From the IMG/VR virus record IMGVR_UViG_2529293084_000006: a stretch of 57,580 bases of DNA; one strand, written 5' to 3'. The translations under genes were made by a program, and so were the position numbers. Below, piece after piece: positions 5,335 to 57,471 of the stretch (its first letter is position 1; each line of letters opens with the position of its first letter). The notes beneath the pieces are model-generated. The model saw only the letters and a program-made list of their open reading frames with translations. It had not been told where the DNA came from and did no database searches. The stretch is from a virus. Taxonomy: Duplodnaviria; Heunggongvirae; Uroviricota; Caudoviricetes.

Positions 5335-7170
5335 TTACCTGCCAAAGCGCGTATAGCCAACATCATGGCTGACATCAAAACCGCTGGATCGCGTTTCCAT
5401 AACCCGCATACCCGGAGGCGAATTCACAAAAGAGACCTTGATCTCACCATCAACTTTTGGCGCAGAAGCTTTGTTAATCATGAAGGGATTCGGGCCTGTG
5501 GCACCGGAGGCGTTGTTTGACTGAGCCGGATCTACCGCCTGATAAGGTGTGTATCCCCGTGCCGGTATTCCCGTCCCATAAGCATCATAAGCACCCGCGC
5601 CCCACTGCGCAGAGTTAATGGCATCGACCGTGTCACCGGAACTGTCGGTAAACCACTCAATAATTGGCTTCAGTTTGTCCCACATATCCTGAAACCACTT
5701 AACAACCGGTCCCCAGTTATTGATTACCATCCCCAGCGGCGACCAGGCAAAAACCTTCTTCAGAAGTTCCCAGCCAGCCTCAAAATAAGGACCAATGGTT
5801 TCCCAGAGCTTCTTGAAATAAGGTCCGACAACATCCCAGTTAGTGATAATTAATCCCGCAGCCAGGGCTATCGCCGTCGCAATCATTCCAATCGGCGTCA
5901 TCGACATGATCCTGCTGACAATACTGATGGCACCGCCAACGCCCATCAATCCCAGTTTCAGAATCGCAAGACCGGCAGCAAGCCCGACGACGCCGCGAAT
6001 AACCCGGGGATTTTCATCCGCAAACTTCGTGAATTTTTCCCCTAACTCCCCCAGCCATTGCGTGATATTTTTGGCGTCACCAGAAAATGCGCCGCCAATA
6101 GCCGCAAGGCCGTTAGTTGCGGTCCCCGTCATTGCCTCCCACAGGTTGGACAGCGTACCAAGCTGGGCCTGAACACGTTTATTCAGGCTGGCCTGTTTAT
6201 TCATCTTCTGCTGGATCTGATCGTAGCCATCCTTTCCTTTATCGATTAGTGCATTGACCACCTGAAGGGTTTCGGCATCATCACCAAATATTGCCTTAAG
6301 TACACCTGTTCGCTTAACGTCGGTCAGTTTTCGCAGCTTTGCCAGTTGCCTGAACATGTTATCAAGACCGCCAAAACTTCCTTTGCCGTCAGTAAAATCG
6401 AGCTGTACCCCGAGTTTCTGGCGGGCCATGATTTTATTGACGTCCCTGATTTTCTTAACGCTTAATCCGGACTGGATAACTTTTCGCAGGGCGTTACCTG
6501 CCGACTCCCCGTTCATCCCCATCTGATCCATCATGACGCTGATGGGGGCAAGGCTCTGTGCAGCCTGAAGACCGTCCTTGTTCACCATCTTCAGAACAGA
6601 GCTGGTTTTAGTGAAGAAGGACAACATGTTGGTATCGTCAACACCCAGATAAAACGCCTTCTGGATAGTGTCGAACAGCCCCATCATGTCTTCTGACGCC
6701 GTTCCGGTAGCATCCTGCATCTTTGCAGCAAACTCAGCAGCCGCTTCCGGTGTTTTTTTCAGTTGTACCGCAAGATAAGCTGTCGCTTTACCCACACCGC
6801 CAAGAATGTTTTCTGCCGGGATCCCCTGACGCACCAGCATCTGCATCATGTTCTGGAAATCAGCCGTTGTACCGGGTAGCTGGTTACCCAGGCCAATAGC
6901 CAGTTTATTGATGTCCTGAAAGCTCTTTCCAACCTCGCCGTTCGCATCCATCATGGCGACTTTCAGCCCGGTGGCGGCGTTTTCCTGATCGGCATAAGAT
7001 TTCAGGGAAAGCGTCAGACCCGCTGCCAGTCCGCCACCAAGCGCCAGCCCACCCTGTGACGCTTCTTCCGCCTGGCGTTTAAATCCCCGGATTTTCTTTT
7101 GCATTTTCGACAGCGCGGGAGAAAGCCTGTCGACACCGGTGATCAACGCCTTAAGCTCAAATTCCGCCAT
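5335..7170 (-). CDS. Tail tape measure protein
   Basis: 611-aa protein with Ala/Gly-rich low-complexity stretches and a C-terminal hydrophobic segment; located downstream of the tail chaperone pair. Confidence 0.75.
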   Translation of the reverse strand: MAEFELKALITGVDRLSPALSKMQKKIRGFKRQAEEASQGGLALGGGLAAGLTLSLKSYADQENAATGLKVAMMDANGEVGKSFQDINKLAIGLGNQLPGTTADFQNMMQMLVRQGIPAENILGGVGKATAYLAVQLKKTPEAAAEFAAKMQDATGTASEDMMGLFDTIQKAFYLGVDDTNMLSFFTKTSSVLKMVNKDGLQAAQSLAPISVMMDQMGMNGESAGNALRKVIQSGLSVKKIRDVNKIMARQKLGVQLDFTDGKGSFGGLDNMFRQLAKLRKLTDVKRTGVLKAIFGDDAETLQVVNALIDKGKDGYDQIQQKMNKQASLNKRVQAQLGTLSNLWEAMTGTATNGLAAIGGAFSGDAKNITQWLGELGEKFTKFADENPRVIRGVVGLAAGLAILKLGLMGVGGAISIVSRIMSMTPIGMIATAIALAAGLIITNWDVVGPYFKKLWETIGPYFEAGWELLKKVFAWSPLGMVINNWGPVVKWFQDMWDKLKPIIEWFTDSSGDTVDAINSAQWGAGAYDAYGTGIPARGYTPYQAVDPAQSNNASGATGPNPFMINKASAPKVDGEIKVSFVNSPPGMRVMETRSSGFDVSHDVGYTRFGR

Positions 7171-7581: not shown

Positions 7582-7937
7582 TACTGGTAATCCCCTTCTT
7601 CACCGTGGAACTCAAGATCAACCGTGCCTTCTTCGGCATTATGGTTCGCTTCGCCGTGCAGCCAGGCAGACGACAGTACATAGACCTGACCGTTCGCCAG
7701 CTCGGCAGTGATGGTCATCTCATCAGACGAGGTGATTTTGCTTACCGGAAAATTCTTCGGCACCTTGAAGGTCCCTTTGACATAAGGCGCACGGTGAGTT
7801 TCCTTGCGGTCCACTGAACCGTCCAGGCCGATGATGTCATCGTTAACCGTTTTGTTCATGGGCACCTCAATGCCGCCGGTCAGCGATAGCTGCTGACCGT
7901 CAATTTTGAAATAACAGGTTCCCCCGATACGGGCCAT
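7581..7937 (-). CDS. Tail tube protein
   Basis: 118-aa ORF immediately downstream of the sheath gene; size and position match the tube gene at 37784..38149. Confidence 0.7.
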   Translation of the reverse strand: MARIGGTCYFKIDGQQLSLTGGIEVPMNKTVNDDIIGLDGSVDRKETHRAPYVKGTFKVPKNFPVSKITSSDEMTITAELANGQVYVLSSAWLHGEANHNAEEGTVDLEFHGEEGDYQ

Positions 7938-12682: not shown

Positions 12683-13285
12683 TTACGCGTTAAGAAGGGT
12701 CAGGACGCGTTCACGCGCCATACGTTGATTAATGGCTTTCTGTAGCGCGCCGCTGTTGCGCGCCTCCTGCCATGCTTTCATGGAGCGAACAGCCGAGTCA
12801 GCCTCCTGATAGGCAGGATATGTCACAGGACTGACATCCAGCAGACGGGAAAAGCGGGTTATCTCGCGAATAACAACCCCGTCCTCATCCTGATACCACT
12901 CCTCGCCGTCACGGGCGACACGGAAAGCAAAAGATGACTGGTTAATATCTCCACGTTGCATCGGGGCCAGCACCAGATCACGAATGGTCTGTGTCTCCGG
13001 AGCCTGGATGTCATAGCGCAATCCGCGCTCATCAACTGAAAGATTCAGCGTGCCTGCTGCACTACGCCCAAGAATAAAATTAGGATCGTGGTTAAACAGT
13101 GCGCGTACATCATCACCAAGCACATCGTCAAAAGCGCCGGGCCGGATGATTTCGCGGAATGAACCAAATATCAGCTCAGAACGACAGTCAAACACCGATC
13201 CATAACCGATAATGTGCGCAGGGTTATCGTCATGCCGCTCAGCACGCACCTCACCGCTGTAACAACGGATTTCACGGTCATTCAT
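12683..13285 (-). CDS. Prohead protease, HK97 family
   Basis: ORF 12683..13342 trimmed to the ATG at 13285 (MNDREIR..., RBS GAGGGA upstream); sits between portal and major capsid. Confidence 0.7.
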   Translation of the reverse strand: MNDREIRCYSGEVRAERHDDNPAHIIGYGSVFDCRSELIFGSFREIIRPGAFDDVLGDDVRALFNHDPNFILGRSAAGTLNLSVDERGLRYDIQAPETQTIRDLVLAPMQRGDINQSSFAFRVARDGEEWYQDEDGVVIREITRFSRLLDVSPVTYPAYQEADSAVRSMKAWQEARNSGALQKAINQRMARERVLTLLNA

Positions 13286-13646
13286 TGGTTTTTCCCTCAT
13301 CATTTTTTGGGGGCTTAAAATCTCCTGCCGGGTTAGCAGCATTCACGCTTACCAGCATCTCATCCAGCCCTTCAACCGGATTCATATCCTCGAATGCGCG
13401 GGCTTCATTACGGCTCATCCATCCATCGGTAATAGCGAAGTGATAGAATTGCGCGCGCTCCTGCGGAGTTCCGCGTAAAAGCCCCGTCAGATTGAACCTA
13501 ACGTAATACCCGGCGGCTAACTCAGCGCGGGTAAACAAGCGACGGTTAAGCTCCTGCTCCCAGTTCGTTACCCACGGCATCATCGTGTAGCGGACAAACT
13601 GAATCGCCTGCGCAGAAATATTGGAGAATGTAACCAGGTGAATCAT
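13278..13646 (-). pseudogene. Portal protein C-terminal fragment (gene interrupted by the Mu-like insertion)
   Basis: 122-aa ORF; the frame ..VTFSNISAQ.. continues the N-terminal fragment ending ..INDLEKATF at 52920, so the two pieces reconstruct a ~415-aa HK97-type portal. Confidence 0.75.
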
Positions 13647-24146: not shown

Positions 24147-24572
24147 ATGGCAGAAACTCAGATGAGCATGTTTGGTGGTGACAGTGAGCAACTGCACGCC
24201 CTTATCGACCGCCTTGATGACATCCCTGATGATGTTCTCAAAAAGAACTGGCCGCGGACCCTGTCAGAACTGGTTGAAGTCACCGGCGCAGAACTTCAGC
24301 GTCAGGGGATTGAGCCGGTACTGGCCGGTAAACTGGCACGCAAGGTGGCTGCGGCTCAGGCCGCCTATATGGGCGGACGGGGTTATTACCTGCCGGTCGG
24401 GGAATCTCTCTTTGCCGAGCTGCGAAACAATGAGATATTTTCGCGCTGGGACCGGGGCGAGAAAATTGAATCCCTTCGCCGCCATTACCGGATGTCAGAA
24501 ACCCAGATTTATACCGTCATACGCGAACAGCGCCGTCTGCATCTGGCAAGAACGCAACCGCCACTTTTCTGA
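24147..24572 (+). CDS. Mor/C-family transcription activator (C-like, late-gene activator by position)
   Basis: 141 aa; C-terminus (..GGRGYYLPVG..LRNNEIFSRW..RMSETQIYTVIREQRR) matches the Mor/C HTH pattern; located just upstream of the lysis genes. Confidence 0.65.
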   Translation: MAETQMSMFGGDSEQLHALIDRLDDIPDDVLKKNWPRTLSELVEVTGAELQRQGIEPVLAGKLARKVAAAQAAYMGGRGYYLPVGESLFAELRNNEIFSRWDRGEKIESLRRHYRMSETQIYTVIREQRRLHLARTQPPLF

Positions 24573-24643
24573 TATTCCGCAAAGCCTGCCGCCTCTCCTT
24601 CACCGTTACGCTGACTCAGAGAACATCATGAGACAGCGTAACA

Positions 24644-32431: not shown

Positions 32432-32523
32432 CCTGAATTTAACGGGCTTTAAAATCTGCGTGAAGCGCCTTTGTATTTTTCCCCTGAAAGCACTTCCTGA
32501 AATCCCGCAAAACCCGCCCTGAA
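32432..32523 (+). promoter_or_regulatory. Four direct CCTGAA(A) repeats upstream of gene I (candidate late promoter / activator sites)
   Basis: CCTGAA at 32432, 32483, 32496 and 32518 in the 176-bp G-I intergenic region, preceded by a hairpin at 32376..32400. Confidence 0.3.
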
Positions 32524-32546
32524 AATTCCCGGCTTATGCTGCCGGA

Positions 32547-35476: not shown

Positions 35477-36033
35477 TTACGGAAACCGAACAGGCATACA
35501 TCGCCCGTATCCGTGAGTATTTCGGGAATGAACTGGTGTCTGTTGACACGCATCCCGGCGACTGGAACGACAGCGTACTGCGCACCATGCTGATTAACGC
35601 CCCGGCGATCTACGTTGCCTGGCTGGGTGCCGGTGAAGGCCGTACCCGTGGTCGCCTGGTCAGTCACTGGGTGTTCTACGTCATCGGCGACATGCTCAAC
35701 GGGCGTGAGGCCAGCCGTCCCGGATTGTATCAGATTGTGGCCCGGCTGATTGCCGTGCTTAACGGCTTCAGAACAGAAAAAACCTCACCGCTTTACTTTG
35801 AAAAGGCGGTCAACGGTTACACCGAAACCCAGGCGGACAGTGGTGCGGTGATGTATGCGCTTTATTTCTCCTGCGAGGAAATGATCGCACCGCTGACCGA
35901 TATCAGCTCGCTGGACGACTTCCTGCGTCATTACGAAACCTTTGTGGAGCCGCCCGGTACGCCGCCGTTTGAGGCACATATTGATTTGCCGGGGAACACG
36001 ACAACGGCGGTCGAACCGCCGGAGGAACTGTAA
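35473..36033 (+). CDS. Conserved phage protein (Mu gp37 position)
   Basis: 186-aa ORF. Confidence 0.45.
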   Translation: MITETEQAYIARIREYFGNELVSVDTHPGDWNDSVLRTMLINAPAIYVAWLGAGEGRTRGRLVSHWVFYVIGDMLNGREASRPGLYQIVARLIAVLNGFRTEKTSPLYFEKAVNGYTETQADSGAVMYALYFSCEEMIAPLTDISSLDDFLRHYETFVEPPGTPPFEAHIDLPGNTTTAVEPPEEL

Positions 36034-45953: not shown

Positions 45954-46864
45954 TGTTCCATGTTGATAATAATTCCGGCGTGGCGAATATGCCTGAACTG
46001 GCTCCGGCGCAGAGTAATACCACCACCTGGTTTACCGAAGGTGACGGACAAAAAGGTATCAGCTGGATTGGTCAGGACTGGCTGAATATTCTCCAGGCCG
46101 AACTGCTGAATATTCTGGCTGAAGCCAGTATTCAGCCGGATAAGGCGCAGTTAAACCAGCTTACGCTGTCCATTAAAGCCATTATCGCTGCGAATGCCTT
46201 TTCCCGGAAAAACAACCTGAAAGAAATTGCTGATGCCGGTGCGGAAGCCCAGCGTCTGGCCCGTGGTTATCTTGGTCTGGGGACGCTTGCCACAAAAAAC
46301 AGTCTTGGTCCCGCTGACGTTAATGCCCTGGCGAAGGATCAGAACCTTGCCGACCTGGAGAATGCGGAAACCGCCCGTAATAATCTGGATGTTTACAGCA
46401 GGAGCGAAGGTGATAACCGTTACCTGCGCAGGGACCAGAATGGCGCGGATATCCAGGACAAAGGAACCTTTATCGATAACCTCGGTTTACGGGAAACGGT
46501 AAATAAGGCTGCTGATGCCCTGCCATCGGCTGGAACCGCCGTGGCAGCAAACAGACTCGCCACCCCAAGAAATATTAATGGTGTTCCTTTTGACGGAACG
46601 CTGGATATCAACATCACGTCAGGAATGACGCAGTCAACCGCAGATGGCCGGTATGTACAGAATGTTCAGCTTGGAGCACAGAGCTATCATTCACCCGGAG
46701 GCAATGAAATGTCATGGAATTACAGCGCACCTTCCGGTTGTATGCTTTCCGGTATTAACGTGCAGGAAACCGGCTCCCGGTCTGCGGACAATATCGGTGG
46801 GGTCTATTATCGCCCGGTTCAGATTTATATTAATAATACCTGGAGAACGGTAAGTTCAGTGTAA
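45953..46864 (+). CDS. Tail fibre protein (constant N-terminal part plus variable C-terminus in the current orientation)
   Basis: Track ORF 45899..46864 trimmed to ATG 45953 (AAGAGGAG RBS); the coding sequence crosses the left gix site at 46470. Confidence 0.7.
   Translation: MFHVDNNSGVANMPELAPAQSNTTTWFTEGDGQKGISWIGQDWLNILQAELLNILAEASIQPDKAQLNQLTLSIKAIIAANAFSRKNNLKEIADAGAEAQRLARGYLGLGTLATKNSLGPADVNALAKDQNLADLENAETARNNLDVYSRSEGDNRYLRRDQNGADIQDKGTFIDNLGLRETVNKAADALPSAGTAVAANRLATPRNINGVPFDGTLDINITSGMTQSTADGRYVQNVQLGAQSYHSPGGNEMSWNYSAPSGCMLSGINVQETGSRSADNIGGVYYRPVQIYINNTWRTVSSV
46470..46495 (+). promoter_or_regulatory. Left gix-like recombination site TTATCGATAACCTCGGTTTACGGGAA
   Basis: About 22/26 identity to the Mu gix sequence as I recall it; central TC dinucleotide. 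Confidence 0.65.
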
Positions 46865-46898
46865 ACCACAGAAAAGGGTGCTGAATGCACCCTCTGAA

Positions 46899-47420
46899 TT
46901 ATTCCGGTTTTTCCGGCCAGGGAATCGCCTGGTAATGCCCCTCACTGGCAATATCATTAAAGTGCATTTCTTTAAGCTGTCGGATATACGCCATCCAGCG
47001 CGTCAGCTGTAATTTATTTTCATCGCTAATCATGTCCAGTTTTAATTCTGTTTTCCAGTCATCCACGGTTTCGTTGGCTTCCTGGAGCAGCGATGAGCGA
47101 CGCTTTTCAGCAACCGTCTTCCAGTTTACCGGCACCTTTGATATCAGGCCATCAGAAAACTGCCAGTTACCGTCAATATTCACACCTTCCGGCAGTTCGT
47201 CCACTTCAACAACAGTAAAACCTGCCGGATATAAAGCAGAGACATCTTCAGCAACAGAGCAGATAATACCCGTTACAGGCGAAATACAGAGTTTGTATTT
47301 CTTTGTAAAAAGCGGGATAGATTCATAAAAATCCCTTCCGTCCTCACTCTGGAAATACTGAACATCCTCACCATAGGGTTTGTCTTTCGGGTAATATCGT
47401 TTGACATTAATCAGTTGCAT
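46899..47420 (-). CDS. Tail fibre assembly protein (chaperone for the alternative fibre)
   Basis: Track ORF 46899..47471 trimmed to ATG 47420 (MQLINVKRYYP...); inside the invertible segment, downstream of the alternative fibre C-terminus on the same strand. Confidence 0.65.
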   Translation of the reverse strand: MQLINVKRYYPKDKPYGEDVQYFQSEDGRDFYESIPLFTKKYKLCISPVTGIICSVAEDVSALYPAGFTVVEVDELPEGVNIDGNWQFSDGLISKVPVNWKTVAEKRRSSLLQEANETVDDWKTELKLDMISDENKLQLTRWMAYIRQLKEMHFNDIASEGHYQAIPWPEKPE

Positions 47421-47541
47421 AAACATCACCATGTAAATCAATGATAAAAACAGGAATAATACTATCGCCATATACAGGCAATGCTTGTCTGAAATAACGC
47501 ATATTTCAGATGCTGGCTGCTGTGTGCTATGCCCCCGTTAA

Positions 47542-47895
47542 TTAAATACTTGCAGCGGATACCCAATGCCCATTAATACAATATTGTATCTGTCTGTAAT
47601 AAACACGGTCATCACCACCACGCATTTCCCAGTCTCCGTCAGTCTTAAAACCGGTAATCACATTTCCTGATGACAGGGAGTAATTATATTCCAGTCCGCC
47701 GCTTAATGCCTGCGCTCCCAGTCTTACCCCTGTAACATAACGCTGATTGGCCGTTGATTCCGGCATTCCTGACGTAATGTTTATATCCTGCGTGCCGTCA
47801 AAGGCGACACCATTGATTCTGCGGGCATTTGCCAGCCTGCTTGCTGCAACAGCCGTACCGTTTGATGGCAGGGCATTCGCGGCCCTGTTTACCGT
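47542..47895 (-). CDS. Alternative tail-fibre C-terminal coding segment, promoter-less in this orientation
   Basis: Reverse-strand frame homologous to the + strand fibre C-terminus (..NGTAVAA.RLA..R.INGV.FDGT.DINITSGM..); the track ORF 47542..47766 is its distal part; 5' limit approximate. Confidence 0.55.
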   Translation of the reverse strand, partial: TVNRAANALPSNGTAVAASRLANARRINGVAFDGTQDINITSGMPESTANQRYVTGVRLGAQALSGGLEYNYSLSSGNVITGFKTDGDWEMRGGDDRVYYRQIQYCINGHWVSAASI

Positions 47896-47921
47896 ATCCC
47901 GTAAACCGAGGTTTCAGGGAT
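47896..47921 (-). promoter_or_regulatory. Right gix-like recombination site, inverted relative to the left site
   Basis: Reverse complement ATCCCTGAAACCTCGGTTTACGGGAT shares the core with the left site. Confidence 0.65.
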
Positions 47922-47975
47922 GCCGTATATCTACTTTAAAAGGCTTTTCCACCTCTTTTTAAGGAAGGTAAATAC

Positions 47976-48536
47976 ATGCTGATTGGCTATATACGCGTAT
48001 CAACAAATGACCAGAACACCGGTTTACAAAGAAATGCGCTGGAATGTGCAGGATGTGAGCAGATTTTTGAAGACAAAATGAGTGGTAAAACGACACAGCG
48101 GCCGGGACTGAAGCGGGCACTGAAGAAACTAAAACCCGGTGACACGCTGATGGTCTGGAAACTGGACAGGCTGGGGCGCAGTATGCGCCACCTTGTTGCG
48201 CTGACAGATGAATTACAGCAACAGGGGATAAATTTTCGTAGTCTTACTGACAACATTGATACGTCAACCCCCATGGGGCGCTTCTTTTTTCACATAATGG
48301 GTGCGCTGGCAGAAATGGAGCGTGAATTAATTGTCGAACGGACACGGGCTGGTCTTGCAGCTGCCCGTGAAAGGGGACGAACCGGCGGCAGACCCCGCCG
48401 TCTCACGCAGGAACAATACGAGCAGGTCGGGCGTTTACTGGCCGGGGGTGTCAGTCGAAGACAGGTGGCACTTATTTTTGATATCGGTCTTTCAACCCTT
48501 TATCGTTATTATCCTGCGAGCGTTTCGGAAAAATAA
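47976..48536 (+). CDS. gin: Serine recombinase / DNA invertase (Gin/Hin/Pin/Cin family)
   Basis: 186 aa; N-terminal catalytic region (LIGYIRVSTNDQ, MVWKLDRLGRS) and C-terminal HTH; directly beside the invertible segment. Confidence 0.9.
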   Translation: MLIGYIRVSTNDQNTGLQRNALECAGCEQIFEDKMSGKTTQRPGLKRALKKLKPGDTLMVWKLDRLGRSMRHLVALTDELQQQGINFRSLTDNIDTSTPMGRFFFHIMGALAEMERELIVERTRAGLAAARERGRTGGRPRRLTQEQYEQVGRLLAGGVSRRQVALIFDIGLSTLYRYYPASVSEK

Positions 48537-48635
48537 GACGCTCTCTTTGTTGGGCCTTTACTGAATTAACGCAAAATGGCGTTTATCGGTCTGTGGATAT
48601 GATAATTCAGTTTATTCAGGAACAGGCTGATTATT

Positions 48636-50675
48636 ATGACGTCCAAATGGGTTCAACTATCATCAATGCCCGGAAACTTTACTGTTAAAGTTTCCGGTGG
48701 TACAGCGGCATTTCTTGAGGCTCCCTTTCCTCCGGCCGAAACAAAAGGAGGAATGACATTTGCTGACTGTCTCATCAGTTTTAATACACGGGATTGCCTG
48801 TGGGTAAGGCCAGTATCCGGTGATCCGAGTGTGGAAATTACCGGAGCGGGTATTGGTGCGGTCATTCCGTTAAGTGCTGATGTTGCCGGTACTGCTGAAC
48901 CGTCAGACTGGGATAATGCTGAAACACATACCCGTCCGTCAGGAAATGAAACTGCTTCCAGCTCCCCTTCCTGGTATTACGTGGTGGTTCTTGCTGGTCA
49001 GTCAAACGGTATGGCTTACGGTGAAGGTCTGCCACTGCCGGAGACATATGACCGCCCCGAACCGCGTATTATGCAGTTAGCCCGTCGCAGTACAGTCACG
49101 CCGGGAGGTAAAGCCTGTCAGTATAACGACATCATTCTGGCCGACCACTGTCTGCATGATGTGCAGGATATGAGTGGAAAAAATCACCCGAAAGCGGATG
49201 TGGCTAAAGGGCAATATGGCACCGTGGGTCAGGGGCTTCACATTGCCAAAAAACTGCTGCCGTTTATTCCGGCAGATGCGGGGATTCTGCTGGTTCCCTG
49301 CTGCCGTGGTGGTTCTGCATTCACGGCGGGTGCTGACGGCACGTACAGTGACAGCACGGGTGCTTCAGAGGACTCAGCCCGCTGGGGTGTGGATAAGCCG
49401 CTGTATAAGGACTTAATCAGCCGGACAAAAGCGGCACTGGCGAAGAACCCGAAAAACCGCCTGCTTGCTGTGGTGTGGATGCAGGGCGAGTTTGATATTG
49501 ATGCGAAGCCGACGGAGCATTCTGCGCTGTTTCTGGCGATGGTGGAAAAATTCCGCGCAGACCTGGCTGAACAGGCGGAACAGTGTACCGGTGGCAGTGC
49601 TGCTGGCGTTCCGTGGATTTGTGGCGATACCACGTATTTCTGGAAACAGAAAAATGAACCAGCATACCAGGCAATCTATGGCGGCTACAAAAACAAAACA
49701 GATAAAAACATTCATTTCGTTCCATTAATGACAGATGAAAATGGCGTGAATGTACCCACCAACAATCCGGCAGAAGACCCGGATATTGAATCCATTGGTT
49801 ATTACGGCTCAACGTGGCGTAACAGTGCCGCTACCTGGACATCTGCGGACCGGGCCAGCCATTTCAGTGCCTGGGCGCGCCGGGGTATTATTTCTGACCG
49901 TCTGGCCACGGCTGTTCTGACTCATGCAGGGCGAACCACAGTAAAAGCCGATGTTCCATCTTCTGAAACTGAAGCACCAGTGCCGTCACCTTCAGAAACT
50001 GAAGCAGTAACCACAACACTGCTGTCTTACCGTGTCAGTGAGTCAGAAGGAAATCTGAAAGCCCAGGGCTGGGAGCCGGCTGGCGGTAAAGCTGAAATTA
50101 TCAGTGATGCAGGAGGCACAGGTGGTAAGGCAATGAAACTGACCAAGGAAACAGGTAAATCATCCTGGTATCTGGATCATGATGCCGGTACTGGTGCTGA
50201 ACTGCTGAAAAATGGTGGTTTAATCAGTTGTCGTTTTAAAGTACCTGGCGACCTGGTGGCAAACCAGTATGTCATGGCGCTGTACTGGCCGGTTTCCTCT
50301 CTGCCGCAGGGTGTCACCCTGACAGGGGATGCAGGGAATAATCTGCTGGCATCGTTCTACATCCAGACAGACGCAAAAGACCTGAATGTGATGTACCACA
50401 ATGCAAAAGTGGCAACAAATAACCAGAAACTGGGAACCTTTGGTGCATTTGATAATGAATGGCATACGCTGGCCTTCCGTTTTGCAGGAAATAACAGCCT
50501 TCAGGTTATTCCGGTTATTGATGGTCAGGATGGTGCCGCGTTTACCCTGACGCAGTCACCAGTAGGAACTTTCCCGGTGGACAAACTCCGCGTAACGGAT
50601 ATCACCAAAAATGCAACTTACCCGGTGCTGATTGACAGCATTGTGGTGGAAGTGAAAAAAGCGGTAACAGAATAA
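48636..50675 (+). CDS. SGNH-hydrolase family esterase, likely a sialate O-acetylesterase of the prophage NanS-p type
   Basis: 679 aa; GQSNG block (VVLAGQSNGMAYGE) typical of SGNH hydrolases; size and multidomain layout resemble prophage esterases of enterohaemorrhagic E. coli; family assignment is from motifs only. Confidence 0.6.
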   Translation: MTSKWVQLSSMPGNFTVKVSGGTAAFLEAPFPPAETKGGMTFADCLISFNTRDCLWVRPVSGDPSVEITGAGIGAVIPLSADVAGTAEPSDWDNAETHTRPSGNETASSSPSWYYVVVLAGQSNGMAYGEGLPLPETYDRPEPRIMQLARRSTVTPGGKACQYNDIILADHCLHDVQDMSGKNHPKADVAKGQYGTVGQGLHIAKKLLPFIPADAGILLVPCCRGGSAFTAGADGTYSDSTGASEDSARWGVDKPLYKDLISRTKAALAKNPKNRLLAVVWMQGEFDIDAKPTEHSALFLAMVEKFRADLAEQAEQCTGGSAAGVPWICGDTTYFWKQKNEPAYQAIYGGYKNKTDKNIHFVPLMTDENGVNVPTNNPAEDPDIESIGYYGSTWRNSAATWTSADRASHFSAWARRGIISDRLATAVLTHAGRTTVKADVPSSETEAPVPSPSETEAVTTTLLSYRVSESEGNLKAQGWEPAGGKAEIISDAGGTGGKAMKLTKETGKSSWYLDHDAGTGAELLKNGGLISCRFKVPGDLVANQYVMALYWPVSSLPQGVTLTGDAGNNLLASFYIQTDAKDLNVMYHNAKVATNNQKLGTFGAFDNEWHTLAFRFAGNNSLQVIPVIDGQDGAAFTLTQSPVGTFPVDKLRVTDITKNATYPVLIDSIVVEVKKAVTE

Positions 50676-50821
50676 AAAAATCCCGCCGGTCATGATATGG
50701 CTGGCGGGAGCTACCTAACCCATAAAGGAAAATAAAAATACTCCCGAAGGAGTGGTTATCAGTCGCTTCGATGTTTTTACCCGATAACGAATTATGTAGT
50801 CAATATCAAAGGTAAGGTTAT

Positions 50822-51004
50822 ATGACATTCGTTCATACAATGCTGCTTTATTTCTGCGCTGTGGTCAGTGCGTTATATCTGGTGAGCGGCGGTTATAAGG
50901 TCATCAGAAATTATATTCGCCGTAAAATTGATGATGCGGCAGCTGAAAAACTCAGTAAAACAGCACAGGCACCGTCATCCCCAAACGACCCGACCCCGCT
51001 CTGA
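50822..51004 (+). CDS. Small membrane protein, unknown function
   Basis: 60 aa; one N-terminal TM helix then a charged tail. Confidence 0.35.
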   Translation: MTFVHTMLLYFCAVVSALYLVSGGYKVIRNYIRRKIDDAAAEKLSKTAQAPSSPNDPTPL

Positions 51005-51039
51005 TAACGGGGCAATATACCTGCAAAAGGAGAATATTC

Positions 51040-51285
51040 ATGCCAGAGATTAAAGGCACGGTTACTGAAGAGCTTGTCAAACAGGCACTTTATTCTGAAG
51101 AAGTGAACCGCGTGCTGAAGGCGCAGGTTCGCAAGGATTTTGAGGCACAAATCGACGCATATGTTGATGAAGTGCTGGCCCGAATGGTTGGCCGTTCTCC
51201 GGCTGAAAACAGCACGGAAAATGATCCTCAACCCGTAGAGCAACCAGAGCCGGTTCAGCCCGGAACTGACGGTACTATGATGTAA
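51040..51285 (+). CDS. Small acidic protein, unknown function
   Basis: 81 aa; acidic, Pro/Glu-rich C-terminus; GGAG RBS. Confidence 0.35.
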   Translation: MPEIKGTVTEELVKQALYSEEVNRVLKAQVRKDFEAQIDAYVDEVLARMVGRSPAENSTENDPQPVEQPEPVQPGTDGTMM

Positions 51286-51836
51286 CAATACCGACCGGCA
51301 GGTTTCCCTGCCGGGTGAGTTTGTTAATGCACGTTTTGTGTATTTTCCCTCCTGGGAGAACAGGCAGGACATATCAGCATCCTGAAACAGGAAGCATTTT
51401 TGGGTTTGTATGTCTTGCCATTTTGAGATCGAGAACGGCGATAGATGAGCTGTAAGGGAGTCTTACAGGCAGGGCAAACAGGCTCTTTCATCCATGATAA
51501 AGATCTCCTTTTTATGCATCTCTGCTTTACAGGAGACTGGGGAATATCATAGGATACGCCACGAGCTCGAAGTAAAGCATTGATGCAAAATTGTCTAAAT
51601 CGGCCCAGAATAGTTCGCGCTATCTGGGTCGCTCTTTATGTATGTAGTATCCCATTGATTTGAAACATACTACATATACGCGCGATCCTACCTTCACTAT
51701 ATAAAAAGTCAATAAAATGATCATTTTATGATCGTTTTCACCACCTAACTCTTCGTTTTCTTTAAGTAAATAATCACCTACCTGAATCATTGTTGATGAC
51801 TTTTCAATCTATTTGTTGTATCAATTAAACAAATCG

Positions 51837-51861
51837 AATCGATCGTTTTTGTCGATCGATT
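51837..51861 (+). promoter_or_regulatory. GATC-containing palindrome AATCGATCG-7bp-CGATCGATT about 45 bp upstream of com
   Basis: Read directly; two Dam sites in the arms. In Mu, mom expression depends on Dam methylation of GATC sites upstream of its promoter. Confidence 0.45.
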
Positions 51862-51904
51862 GCATGAGAAAGGCATCAACAACAAAGCAGGAGGTTATGC
51901 GGCC

Positions 51905-52105
51905 ATGTATCGAAACATACGGTGCCGACACTGCAATAAGCTACTGGCACGGGCCAGTTTCAGTTATCTGGAAGTAAAATGTCCGCGCTGTAAAACCCTC
52001 AATCAAATCACATCTCCGAGCGCCACAGAGCACCCCACATACACAAGGAAATCCTGTCGTGGGGAACAGAAAGCAAGTCACATCCCGAATCATCAGCACG
52101 CCTGA
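51905..52105 (+). CDS. com: Com-like zinc-finger translational activator of mom
   Basis: Track ORF 51860..52105 trimmed to ATG 51905 (AGGAGG RBS); [10 protein letters not shown]...[10 protein letters not shown] matches the Mu Com zinc finger as I recall it; overlaps the mom start. Confidence 0.7.
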
Positions 52106-52796
52106 ACTTATTCGCTATAACGACAATATCGTTGGTTATGGCTCCCGTGAGTTGCGGGTTGAGACAATAAGTTGCTGGCTGGCCAGACTGGTCATCGTCA
52201 ATAAACATTACAGCCACCGTTTCGTAAATAACTCCTACCTTCATCTGGGCATATTTTCAGAACGGGAACTTGTTGGCGTAATGCAATGGGGTTACGCCCT
52301 TAACCCAAACAGTGGTGCACGCGTCGTAACGGGTACGCAGAACCGAGAATATATGGAGCTTAACCGGCTATGGCTGCATGACTGTATGCCGAGAAACTCC
52401 GAATCAAGGGCAATCAGTTACGCGCTCAAGCTAATCAGGCAGCTTTATCCGCAGGTACAGTGGGTTCAGTCGTTTGCAGATGAGCGTTGTGGCTGTCTTG
52501 GTGTCGTGTATCAGGCAAGCAATTTTGATTATGTAGGCAGCCATGAATCAATATTCTATGAACTTGATGGCGAGTGGTATCACGAGATTTGCAGGAATGC
52601 CATTAAACGAGGCGGACAACGAGGTGAACATCTGAGGGCTAATATTGACAGAGCCAATGTTCATAAGTTCCGACAGTTTCGTTACATCCGGTTTCTGAAC
52701 AAGAGGGCCAAAAAACGCCTCAACACAAAGCTATTCAAAGTCCAGCCTTACCCAAAACCACAAACAGTTAAAACTGGTTTGAAAGAGAGTGAATGA
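52059..52796 (+). CDS. mom: Mom-like DNA modification protein
   Basis: 245-aa ORF overlapping com, the last gene before the right end, as in Mu. Confidence 0.65.
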
Positions 52797-52840
52797 GCGC
52801 TTAAAAACTCATTCTAAAACTCAAAAGAAAAGCGCCGATT

Positions 52841-52924
52841 TAGTATCAAATAAGTTGCGTATCGGCGTTTTTCAGCAGTATCAAATGAAATGCAAATCGG
52901 TATCAAAAAAATCGCCGCGCTATA
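52841..52924 (+). repeat. Mu-like right end with three inverted transposase-binding repeats (R1-R3-like)
   Basis: GTATCAAA at 52841, 52878 and 52899; the last 30 bp align in inverse orientation to the left end (TTGATACC at the same offset). The terminus reads ..GCGCTATA, not the canonical ..CA. Confidence 0.55.
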
Positions 52925-53804
52925 AGAAGGTGGCTTTTTCGAGGTCATTAATCATGTGCGCAGGAATATTGAAAATACCGGCAATCATTGAACGGTTCAG
53001 TTTCATCATGTCAATGATCTGAGCGTCAACTGGCGACACAGTCAGTGCCTTGTAATCCAGATCGGCTGGCAGCAGCATGGTTTTGTTTTCCTGGCTGCGT
53101 AACGCCTGCGATGCCTTCTGCCACTGATCTTTAAGCCAGCCCCAGCTGTCCTTATTGAGTCCGCTTTTAACGGATACTATCCCCGCCGGACGGGCATTAC
53201 CGCTGAAGAAGCTTTCTGTGTATTTCTGACCGCTCATCCCCATGCCTATTGTTTCGGCATGTTGCATAATCGGACTCAGCCCCATCTTCTGATTATTACC
53301 CAGCGCACGGATGTGGATCATATCGTCGGGGCTGATCGCAAACGCCCCATATTCGTTGTACAAACCGTAGGTATATCGGCCACCAGTATTCATCAGCGTC
53401 GTTTCCCACGGCATACAGCAATCCAGGGATATGACTTCACCGCGACGATTACGTTTCACCCAGGTATACCCATTCCCCCAGCCAAGGATGTGACGTTGCT
53501 TCAGTTCGCGCCATTTGTAACTGGTTTGCCAGGTATTGGGCTCATCATGAACCAGATAAAACGCCGGATGATCGCGTGCGGGCTCAACCTTCCCATTGTG
53601 CCTGCGCATAACATGCAACGGCATCTGGGCAAGGCTGGAAGACAGGACATAGATACAGGAATACACCGCAGCCAGTTTCATCGCAGTTTCAGGACTGACA
53701 TAAACGTCTGTCCGGAACAGCCCATCAGTATCAACGGCATCCCCGGTTATCGGGGTGGAAGGATTCTCCAGTGATTTACTTCTGAACAGAGCATCAAGCA
53801 GCAC
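52920..53804 (-). pseudogene. Portal protein N-terminal fragment (gene interrupted by the Mu-like insertion)
   Basis: 294-aa ORF ending ..HMINDLEKATF then L-stop read from the Mu right end; continues in frame with 13278..13646. Confidence 0.75.
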
Positions 53805-56652: not shown

Positions 56653-57177
56653 ATGTACTCCAATGAAGAAGCTACCGACATAGCCTCCTCCATTCGTCGT
56701 GAAACTATTTTCATCTACCCAGTAATGAATTCTTTGAAGAGTTGTAATCAATACAACTCGCTAATGGAGAGGCTTGTCTCACACGTGAGACAAGCTTCCT
56801 GTTTGATTTACTGGACACTATAGAAGGACAGAATGCCTTCCTCACTCGAATCACATCAATTAAGGAGGTTCAACATGTTTCATTCCACAAGTCATCAGGC
56901 TGTAATTATGGCAGCATCAGTTTGTGCCACAGACCTTTTCCGCTTCACTTTGAGCCTGATTCATTTCTACCTGACCGGCTCGCCTCTATCTTTTTAATCC
57001 CCGCTTTATCCAAATTGCATTGCCAGAATGCCGACAACAGACTGACATTCAAATCCTGACTACCTCCAATAGTCTGACCGTACACCTATATAGTTTTAAT
57101 TTTCATCAATCCATTTAACTATCGTTTAATTGTTGTCACATAGGATTCTGCCGTTTTTAACAATGCAGGATAATAAG

Positions 57178-57471
57178 ATGAAAAAAATGTTATTTTCTGC
57201 CGCTCTGGCAATGCTTATTACAGGATGTGCTCAACAGACGTTTACTGTTGGAAACAAACCGACAGCAGTAACACCAAAGGAAACCATCACCCATCATTTC
57301 TTCGTTTCGGGAATTGGACAGGAGAAAACTGTTGATGCAGCCAAAATTTGTGGCGGCGCAGAAAATGTGGTTAAAACAGAAACCCAGCAAACATTCGTAA
57401 ATGGATTGCTCGGTTTTATTACTTTAGGCATTTATACTCCGCTGGAAGCGCGGGTGTATTGCTCACAATAA
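57178..57471 (+). CDS. bor: Bor lipoprotein (lambda bor homolog)
   Basis: Track ORF 57130..57471 trimmed to ATG 57178; MKKMLFSAALAMLITGCAQQTFTV... with lipobox LITGC; near-identical to lambda Bor as I recall it; opposite strand to the lysis genes, as in lambda. Confidence 0.8.
   Translation: MKKMLFSAALAMLITGCAQQTFTVGNKPTAVTPKETITHHFFVSGIGQEKTVDAAKICGGAENVVKTETQQTFVNGLLGFITLGIYTPLEARVYCSQ

Follow-up and report, generated by a model that had tools for sequence, protein, structure and literature searches.

Evidence for a lambdoid-type nanS-p esterase module, with a Mu-type N-terminal domain, between gin and com/mom of an Sp18-type Mu-like prophage

Lambda-like prophages, both those that carry Shiga toxin (Stx) genes and those that do not, harbour a nanS-p module between stx/Q and the holin gene. 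The sialate O-acetylesterase NanS-p has been discussed as a fitness and virulence accessory of Stx phages, and whether it serves the bacterium or the phage is debated. For lambdoid NanS-p, esterase activity and a growth benefit have been reported (PMC8065619). Four SGNH blocks (GQSN, G, (W)xQGE and RxSH) have been described for NanS and NanS-p, and genes for DUF826 and DUF1378 proteins are located between nanS-p and S (PMC10462455). In phage phi24B, DUF1737 of the NanS-p protein gp84 has been presented as a capsid-binding decoration domain, with a cleavable linker that contains SSP (bioRxiv 10.64898/2026.04.10.717836). Here, we analyse a stretch of 57,580 nucleotides from a tailed phage (IMG/VR record IMGVR_UViG_2529293084_000006; hereafter the window), in which a gene for an esterase of 679 amino acids (aa) and its companions lie between gin and com/mom of a Mu-like prophage.

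Our best explanation, to which we give a probability of about 0.75, is that this 3.3-kb segment is a lambdoid-type nanS-p module resident in a Mu-like prophage of the Sp18 type, that it has a Mu-type N-terminal domain (N-domain) and that it is probably expressed late, under the C protein of the phage. The sequence comparisons show what the segment is, how it is built and distributed, its mosaicism and the selection on it; the substrate, the late promoter and release or display are predictions. The genes have been public since the genome of Escherichia coli O157:H7 Sakai, under the database names 'sialate O-acetylesterase' and 'DUF6645 protein', and the family and its biochemistry are known. 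What is new is the replacement of the N-domain by a non-homologous one tied to phage type, an apparent rewiring to the Mu late activator, allele turnover and hybrids between the two phage families. The esterase and its companion genes are laid out as follows:

48636-50675, plus strand: esterase of 679 aa (open reading frame (ORF) map; AGQSNG at aa 120-125)
48636..48920, plus strand: N-terminal orphan all-beta domain of the esterase, aa 1-95 (no Pfam hit; AlphaFold2 model; ratio of nonsynonymous to synonymous rates, dN/dS)
48921..48980, plus strand: Ser/Thr/Pro/Gly-rich linker, aa 96-115, with an SSSP motif (predicted local distance difference test, pLDDT, <50; homology to lambdoid alleles and NanS begins at aa ~104)
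48981..49925, plus strand: SGNH/SASA catalytic domain, aa 116-430 (3PT5, E 2e-118; Pfam SASA; four SGNH blocks)
50016..50675, plus strand: C-terminal lectin-like jelly-roll domain, aa 461-679, and stop codon (6YP6, E 2.8e-112; DUF6645, 4e-70)
50822..51004, plus strand: DUF1378 small membrane protein, 60 aa (Pfam PF07125, 1.2e-38; phrog_494)
51040..51285, plus strand: DUF826 acidic protein, 81 aa, pI 4.3 (Pfam PF05696, 2.8e-15; phrog_311)

By its sequence, the 679-aa protein belongs to the NanS-p family of sialate O-acetylesterases, because several features agree. Pfam places SASA at aa 116-312 (6.6e-12) and DUF6645 at aa 524-642; in the Protein Data Bank, NanS (YjhS, 3PT5) matches over aa 104-428 and the C-terminal domain of NanS-p (6YP6) over aa 459-674. 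All SGNH blocks are kept (GQSN-121, CCRGGS-222, WMQGE-281 and RASH-406), and the aromatic quartet Y545, Y550, Y575 and F646 aligns with the proposed sugar site of the phi24B C-domain (Y510, Y515, Y540 and F611). About 300 Stx phage records match aa 115-675 with 78-81% DNA identity, and phrog_143 covers aa 62-677. An earlier reading, made from the sequence only, had recognised the 679-aa ORF and its GQSNG motif and had proposed a sialate O-acetylesterase-like SGNH enzyme of the sort that lambdoid prophages of pathogenic E. coli carry. The profile searches bear this out and narrow it to NanS-p, a family whose occurrence in such prophages is documented (PMC10462455, PMC8065619); they also recovered the carbohydrate-binding part that this reading had thought worth looking for, in the form of the lectin-like C-domain. 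New with respect to that reading are the replaced N-domain, the late-promoter-like element and the reverse-strand pseudogene.

Since the SGNH and lectin-like domains are both intact, we infer that the enzyme should act on Neu5,9Ac2 and mucin sialoglycans by taking off their 9-O-acetyl groups, like those lambdoid NanS-p enzymes that have been assayed (PMC8065619). The basis is the conservation of the catalytic motifs and an identity of 78-86% to lambdoid NanS-p alleles, none of the alleles compared having itself been assayed. The chromosomal enzyme NanS, a member of the nan regulon, has a single domain and is exported. Its catalytic domain is homologous to that of the window protein, which differs from it in having additional N- and C-terminal domains and no signal peptide: as read from the sequence, the N-terminus lacks a signal-peptide-like hydrophobic stretch.

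The two ORFs that follow had been listed, correctly, as a 60-aa membrane protein and an 81-aa acidic protein. The first has a single N-terminal hydrophobic helix and a pI of 9.3 and is a DUF1378 protein; the second belongs to DUF826. Their description as an esterase plus two small ORFs can be refined. Stx2 phage 1717 shows the order NanS-p (DUF1737-SASA-DUF6645), DUF1378 (59 aa, 2e-39), DUF826 (90 aa, 1e-29) and holin, and because the order is the same, the cargo is a three-gene lambdoid nanS-p/DUF1378/DUF826 unit rather than an esterase with unrelated neighbours. Both small genes stay beside the esterase here although the Mu-like lysis genes are 24 kb off, which suggests that DUF1378 and DUF826 are functional partners of the esterase and not of the holin. 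In a blastn search of 50676-51859 against phages, only two records, both labelled 'Mu-like phage inserted in Stx phage', were found, so that DUF1378, DUF826 and the rest of this interval have no close DNA relatives among deposited phages. A search of NCBIfam gave no matches.

Compared with the lambdoid NanS-p proteins of 933W (L0105/z1466) and phi24B (vb_24B_21/gp84), the window protein thus shares the four SGNH blocks, the 6YP6-like jelly-roll domain and the aromatic quartet, it is followed by the same DUF1378 and DUF826 genes, and the enzyme body is 78-86% identical. The differences lie in the N-terminus, which is DUF1737 there and an unrelated beta domain here; in the phage, which is a transposable Mu-type myovirus and not a lambdoid phage; in the position, which is after gin and before com/mom instead of between stx/Q and the holin gene S; and in the predicted regulation, an apparent C-type late promoter in place of Q antitermination. 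The Mu-type allele constitutes a natural domain swap, in which enzyme, lectin and companion genes are kept while the N-domain follows the phage type and the late switch is apparently that of the other family.

The lambdoid relatives match DUF1737 (PF08410) in Pfam, whereas the window esterase does not, and comparison of its first ~100 residues with N-termini of the DUF1737 type gives 9-16% identity. AlphaFold2, with a shallow alignment, produced a six-stranded all-beta fold for aa 1-78 with a pLDDT of 70-85, followed by the disordered S/T/P/G-rich linker; DUF1737 of phi24B gp84 is in contrast described as a helix and three strands (bioRxiv 10.64898/2026.04.10.717836). In sequence and in the model, the lambdoid DUF1737 is thus replaced by an unrelated beta domain of ~80 aa, joined to the enzyme by a flexible S/T/P-rich linker. 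This domain is an orphan. An exhaustive HMMER search of 1.84 billion representatives returned five matches, four of which are N-terminal fragments of this same esterase lineage; two of these extend into the GQSN motif, one of them with only 29% identity. The fifth match, a repetitive protein of 1445 aa, was set aside as probably spurious. There was no match in a set of one genome per species covering 185,579 species, a word-indexed search yielded fragments of the same protein only, and a scan of metagenomes detected only E. coli-type loci. In the viral and metagenome collections, all further loci with the domain (45/45) have a Mu-like context. Most lie behind Mu-like gp47/gp48/S with gin or a remnant of a gin deletion, and on contigs too short to include gp47/gp48/S the domain adjoins gin, com or mom.

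The N-domain is under strong purifying selection. Between two alleles (loci L112 and L113), it shows 25 synonymous and 2 non-synonymous differences (dN/dS 0.02), which is less than in the SGNH domain (0.11) or in the C-terminal one (0.16); the overall range for the N-domain is 0.02-0.15. These values also bear on the idea that the esterase is a decaying remnant without current function. Such decay could be seen in the adjoining reverse-strand gene, which is frameshifted, and in some loci with truncated esterases of 499-567 aa. It is very improbable for the window, given a full-length ORF with every catalytic and binding motif kept, a dN/dS of 0.02-0.26 across all three domains and a sequence that is 100% conserved in many complete genomes.

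The properties of the N-domain raise the question of attachment to the particle. Phage G7C gp63.1, an O-antigen deacetylase tailspike, is a virion-attached SGNH esterase. A second reported example is phi24B gp84, and the window protein resembles these virion-attached esterases in its small N-terminal domain, linker and SGNH esterase and in its predicted late expression, the gp84 linker containing SSP and that of the window esterase SSSP. It differs from them in that no structural or sequence similarity of its N-domain to their anchors was detected. Because the N-domain is specific to the phage type and strongly constrained, because DUF1737 of phi24B is reported to bind the capsid and because the linker carries SSSP, the Mu-type N-domain may plausibly hold the enzyme on the particle of the Sp18-type phage, which, by analogy, we put forward tentatively.

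An enzyme borne on the virion would have its esterase-lectin part anchored by the N-domain to the capsid or to the tail/baseplate, and would bind or de-O-acetylate glycans of mucus or of the bacterial surface during infection. A role for the phage, there by way of a surface receptor, was the alternative in the earlier reading, and it gains from the phi24B cryo-EM preprint. The virion-borne reading draws on the decoration of the phi24B capsid by the NanS-p protein gp84, held by DUF1737 (bioRxiv 10.64898/2026.04.10.717836), and on the replacement of DUF1737 here by a domain exclusive to Mu-like phages on a flexible linker. The gene also stands directly after the tail-fibre/G-segment module, with a late-promoter-like element, and phrog_25867 ('tail protein') weakly matches the SGNH part. 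We nevertheless regard it as doubtful: fold searches show no link to known decoration or tail-attachment domains (with the N-domain model, BFVD returned nothing at E <=1e-3), no stand-alone copies of the N-domain were found, unlike DUF1737, and the phi24B source is a preprint that itself proposes that the catalytic part is cleaved off. If DUF1737 is a capsid anchor, the attachment of the N-domain can be tested in a second, unrelated virion.

The module is embedded in a locus that otherwise follows phage Mu. Its neighbours are:

47976..48536, plus strand: gin, G-segment DNA invertase, left neighbour of the module (Pfam Resolvase, 1.4e-51, and HTH_7)
51905..52796, plus strand: com (51905-52105) and mom (52059-52796), which border the module on the right (Pfam Zn_ribbon_Com, and Mom, 2.6e-77; coordinates of the NCBI Prokaryotic Genome Annotation Pipeline, PGAP)

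At the right end, gin, com and mom are homologous to those of Mu with 71-75% DNA identity (gin, 74.5% over 389 bp), and a GATC cluster lies 5' of com in both phages. In Mu, 94 bp lie between the end of gin at 35673 and the start of com at 35768. In the window, 3368 bp separate the gin stop from the com ATG at 51905, and this 3.37 kb carries four genes; the DNA similarity to Mu ends within gin and picks up again within mom. The claims of the sequence-only reading that gin of Mu directly precedes com/mom and that ~3.3 kb is extra here were thus both right. No flanking repeats that would mark an insertion mechanism were found around the module.

The element itself is of the Sp18 type. Prophage Sp18 of Sakai (ECs_4992-4998) is 98.9% identical to the window over 5 kb with equal gene order, and the window region is 100% identical to several complete genomes of Stx-producing E. 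coli (STEC); in the Sakai annotation these genes are hypothetical proteins only. Sp18 is Mu-like and apparently intact, and mitomycin C fails to induce it (PMC2669165). The Mu-like gene set of the window includes the Mor/C activators, I, T, gp47/48, S, gin, com and mom (Pfam Mor, Mu-like_Pro, Mu-like_gpT, Com and Mom).

To compare the spacing of gin and com, we used 80 viral contigs that encode Mom. All of the ~26 viral loci with a Mom at least 96% identical to that of the window have the esterase, DUF1378 and DUF826 upstream of com. In contrast, the module is absent from the Mu-proper loci (Mom ~79%, gin present; 20+ loci), in which 272-279 bp separate the end of gin from the start of mom, and from more distant Mu-like loci (Mom 68-82%). 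The more distant relatives have no gin, and in most of them a second tail fibre and its chaperone take up the interval from the tail-fibre assembly gene to com. Among complete E. coli genomes, the full stretch from gin to mom, module included, was found in 168 of 5426 (~3%) and the contiguous Mu arrangement in 44. Since all loci with Mom >=96% carry the module and the Mu-proper relatives have gin next to com, the module is a fixed trait of one clade, the Sp18 type, gained relative to Mu. The same three genes are therefore not present at this position in all Mu-like phages, and the earlier proposal of an insertion holds in that respect; it is to be amended in that the module is not sporadic but fixed in its clade. 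Counts of nanS-p copies that are based on DUF1737 or on a lambdoid context miss this Mu-type allele.

The reverse history, in which the ancestor of the Mu-like phages with gin already had the module and Mu, D108 and their relatives lost it by deletion, would account for its fixation in the clade and for alleles that are very diverged, with saturated synonymous divergence (dS). We consider this improbable. By Mom (>=96%) and by com, the carriers group tightly in one clade, with the loci of Mom 68-82% lacking the module; these three genes, in this order, are part of the late region of lambdoid phages; and deep divergence of alleles beside near-identical flanks points to allele replacement and not to divergence in place.

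Among Mu-like phages, the position upstream of com is variable. One Mu-like locus (L034, Mom 80%) has a gene for a 373-aa Acyl_transf_3 protein directly upstream of com (5542-6663, minus strand), and another (L032) has three small reverse ORFs at this site. These support the suggestion of a cargo-acquisition site, which is weakened by the finding that most gin-less relatives hold a structural second tail fibre there. Acyl_transf_3 is a family of O-antigen and other sugar O-acetyltransferases, and an acyltransferase in L034 and an O-acetylesterase in the window thus occupy the same site with opposite chemistry. We also noted that in one sub-lineage (loci L113, L124 and L130, at ~7800-7900 in each) gin has been lost, with its final ~60 bp kept directly upstream of the esterase promoter region; the tail-fibre segment is presumably locked in one orientation there.

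Comparison of alleles within the clade revealed a marked mosaicism. Between the window and locus L095, gin and the N-domain are nearly identical (N-domain dS 0.09), whereas the SGNH domain is saturated (dS >3) and the C-domains are 40% identical. The window enzyme body is 78-86% identical to lambdoid alleles and 40-75% identical to other Mu-like alleles, and at least four body lineages stand behind two N-domain types. As judged from these sequences, near-identical gin and N-domain beside deeply diverged bodies mean that the esterase body, sometimes together with DUF1378, has been replaced repeatedly while the N-domain stays with the phage. For the L009-type and L013-type bodies of Mu-like esterases, the phage collection contained no close relatives.

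Exchange between the two phage types can also be read from hybrid prophages. Loci L027 and L087 begin on the left with lambdoid genes (rusA, Q, methylase) and a DUF1737 N-terminus, which are joined at window position ~48990 to a Mu-type part, made up of the esterase body with DUF1378 and DUF826, then com and mom, and the right end of the Mu-like phage. This junction is the left edge of the homology between lambdoid and Mu-type modules, at the border of N-domain and SGNH domain. A reciprocal product, with Mu tail genes and the Mu N-domain followed by lambdoid-type DUF1378/DUF826, is present in L103/L023 (one contig), and the left arrangement of L098 is the same. On this sequence evidence, the shared module is a recombination substrate between two otherwise unrelated prophage types, and junctions inside nanS-p imply inversions or other rearrangements between Mu-like and lambdoid prophages; the homology of the module has thus already produced hybrid prophages and rearrangements in STEC genomes. 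One candidate, P0073 (L087), had appeared to be a lambdoid allele with a body 92-100% identical to that of the window. It was rejected as such, being a lambdoid/Mu hybrid whose 3' part is a Mu-like allele, and therefore it is no evidence of a recent lambdoid donor.

Upstream of the esterase, the region after gin contains an element that resembles two others in the window:

48562..48603, plus strand: predicted C-dependent late promoter of the esterase (box TGAATTAACGCAAAA at 48562-48576, 21-bp spacer, -10-like TATGAT at 48598-48603)
32498-32540: box TGAAATCCCGCAAAA followed by TATGCT, between G and I
24570-24612: box TGATATTCCGCAAAG followed by TACGCT, between a Mor/C-family gene (24147-24572) and the lysozyme gene

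In Mu, lys and I are two of the four positions of C-dependent late promoters, and by their sequence the elements at 24570-24612 and 32498-32540 are probably Plys and PI of this Sp18-type phage. When the window was searched with TGAATTAACGCAAAA allowing at most one mismatch, the only other site was that at 32498, 35 bp upstream of gene I; by our own estimate, ~0.07 sites of this quality would be expected anywhere in the window. The lys and I elements share the box TGA(T/A)AT(T/C)CCGCAAA(G/A), with TACGCT or TATGCT 21-22 bp on, and at all three sites a TA(T/C)G(C/A)T hexamer begins 36-37 bp past the start of the box. Mu Plys has a related box, CATAATCCCGCAC. In diverged alleles of the esterase locus, box and hexamer are kept while flanking bases vary. 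The layout at the esterase, lys and I fits the published description of Mu C-dependent promoters, with an activator box centred at about -43 that overlaps the -35 position, a -10 hexamer and no -35 hexamer (PMC2582627).

Several points weigh against a C-driven module in this phage. The motif was built on three sites, and a consensus from lys and I alone leaves the esterase site with 3/15 mismatches, at which level ~0.3 box-plus-hexamer sites per window are expected by chance. At the expected positions of the P and mom (com) promoters in the window no comparable box was seen, and the Mu C-site pattern TTAT-N6-ATAA gave no informative placement. In addition, our literature search found no paper linking nanS-p to Mu-like phages or mentioning ECs4993. 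On balance, we favour, from the sequence of these elements, late and C-dependent transcription of the esterase, with less confidence than the module reading as a whole.

The timing of expression bears directly on whether the esterase is simply lysogenic-conversion cargo (a moron), expressed by the lysogen for the benefit of the host, so that STEC can grow on O-acetylated sialic acids of mucus, with no phage role. Lambdoid NanS-p enzymes do give a growth advantage on Neu5,9Ac2 (PMC10462455, PMC8065619). The module lies moreover at the prophage right end, where another Mu-like phage has an acyltransferase moron, and STEC genomes carry several nanS-p copies (median 2 matching places, maximum 12). 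Against such a role, the esterase has no signal peptide, and a lysogen cannot export it without lysis. There is also no sigma-70 promoter signal above chance: the scan found 5 sites where 5.8 were expected in shuffled sequence. The upstream element instead resembles the late promoters of this phage. In lambdoid phages, nanS-p rises on induction together with the late genes. Finally, the N-domain tracks phage type and is more constrained than the enzyme body, which is hard to square with a purely host-serving enzyme. As to a terminator of its own for such cargo, hairpins do follow the esterase gene, with their T-runs on the minus strand. We therefore hold a moron of this kind to be possible, but not likely.

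For the lambdoid-type module under C control that we prefer, the following course can be proposed. The phage's C protein would activate the esterase's own promoter late in lytic growth, a timing that would match that of the module in lambdoid phages, where late transcription depends on Q. Because it has no export signal, the enzyme would leave the cell at lysis, possibly attached to the virion through its N-domain. The lectin domain would target O-acetylated sialoglycans, from which the SGNH domain would take off 9-O-acetyl groups, and the freed sialic acid would become usable by surviving kin, as for lambdoid NanS-p. More speculatively, the esterase-lectin unit may be a plug-in accessory of virions. 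Phages as unrelated as lambdoid podo/siphoviruses and Mu-type myoviruses would then display or deliver one glycan-editing cargo, of which they swap only the small N-terminal anchor (DUF1737 or the Mu-type beta domain) and which they wire to their own late regulator (Q or C). Were this true, the Mu-type N-domain would count as a virion-binding module not recognised before, and nanS-p would mainly serve the phage, in interaction with mucus or cell surfaces, and not be a moron for host fitness.

The remainder of the segment, up to com, contains the following features:

50682-50708 and 50740-50753: two hairpins between esterase and DUF1378 (sequence and terminator scan; T-runs on the minus strand)
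51295..51314: hairpin CCGGCAGG/CCTGCCGG between DUF826 and the reverse-strand gene, which converge (read from the sequence)
51324..51790, minus strand: frameshifted gene of 154 aa, Sakai ECs_4996 (phrog_26524, 2.5e-52; C-terminal zinc-ribbon-like motif CPAC...CPAC)
51837..51861: GATC-containing palindrome directly upstream of com, resembling the GATC cluster upstream of Mu com

The last 570 bp before com had been regarded as non-coding, which is not correct: they carry the 154-aa reverse-strand gene and a GATC-rich region upstream of com. Sakai (ECs_4996) and O26 RM10386 have intact copies, but PGAP labels the gene 'frameshifted' in a record that is 100% identical to the window. Its indels lie within a divergent patch at ~51589-51660, the surroundings being ~99% identical. 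Relatives of the gene adjoin com in esterase-less Mu-like loci (L032 and L033). The start of com had been set at TTG 51860; most likely it is ATG 51905, which has AGGAGG upstream, aligns with the N-terminus of Mu Com and is the PGAP call. A 23-nt inverted repeat (51781-51803 and 51869-51891, 78% complementary) flanks the GATC palindrome and reaches the ribosome-binding site of com, and may form a regulatory structure in the leader of com/mom. The two hairpins after the esterase look like terminators of antisense transcription, and an A-run with a hairpin is likewise found 3' of nanS-p in Stx2 phage 1717. A scan of 47500-53200 with Rfam gave a single match, a chance snoRNA.

We noted further that the invertible G-like segment of the window (46466-47914) has the opposite orientation in locus L004 (5072-6014; AUSMDU00014361), a genome with an otherwise 100% identical right end, as would fit an active gin. 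On the right, the Mu-like prophage ends at 52924, and its terminal sequence there, ...CGCCGCGCTATA, is common to eight independent insertion sites. The prophage, of ~39 kb (~13650 to 52924), interrupts the portal gene of an HK97-type prophage, with fragments corresponding to profile positions 2-246 at 52920-53804 and positions 244-321 at 13278-13646. In Sakai, Sp18 is inserted in sorM instead, and a second difference is the frameshift in the window's equivalent of ECs_4996. The flanking HK97-type prophage also encodes a capsid protein, an S78 protease, a terminase and an HNH protein. It contains in addition an ORF of 113 aa (57130-57471) with a lipoprotein-type signal (MKKMLFSAALAMLITGC), which we take to resemble lambda Bor.

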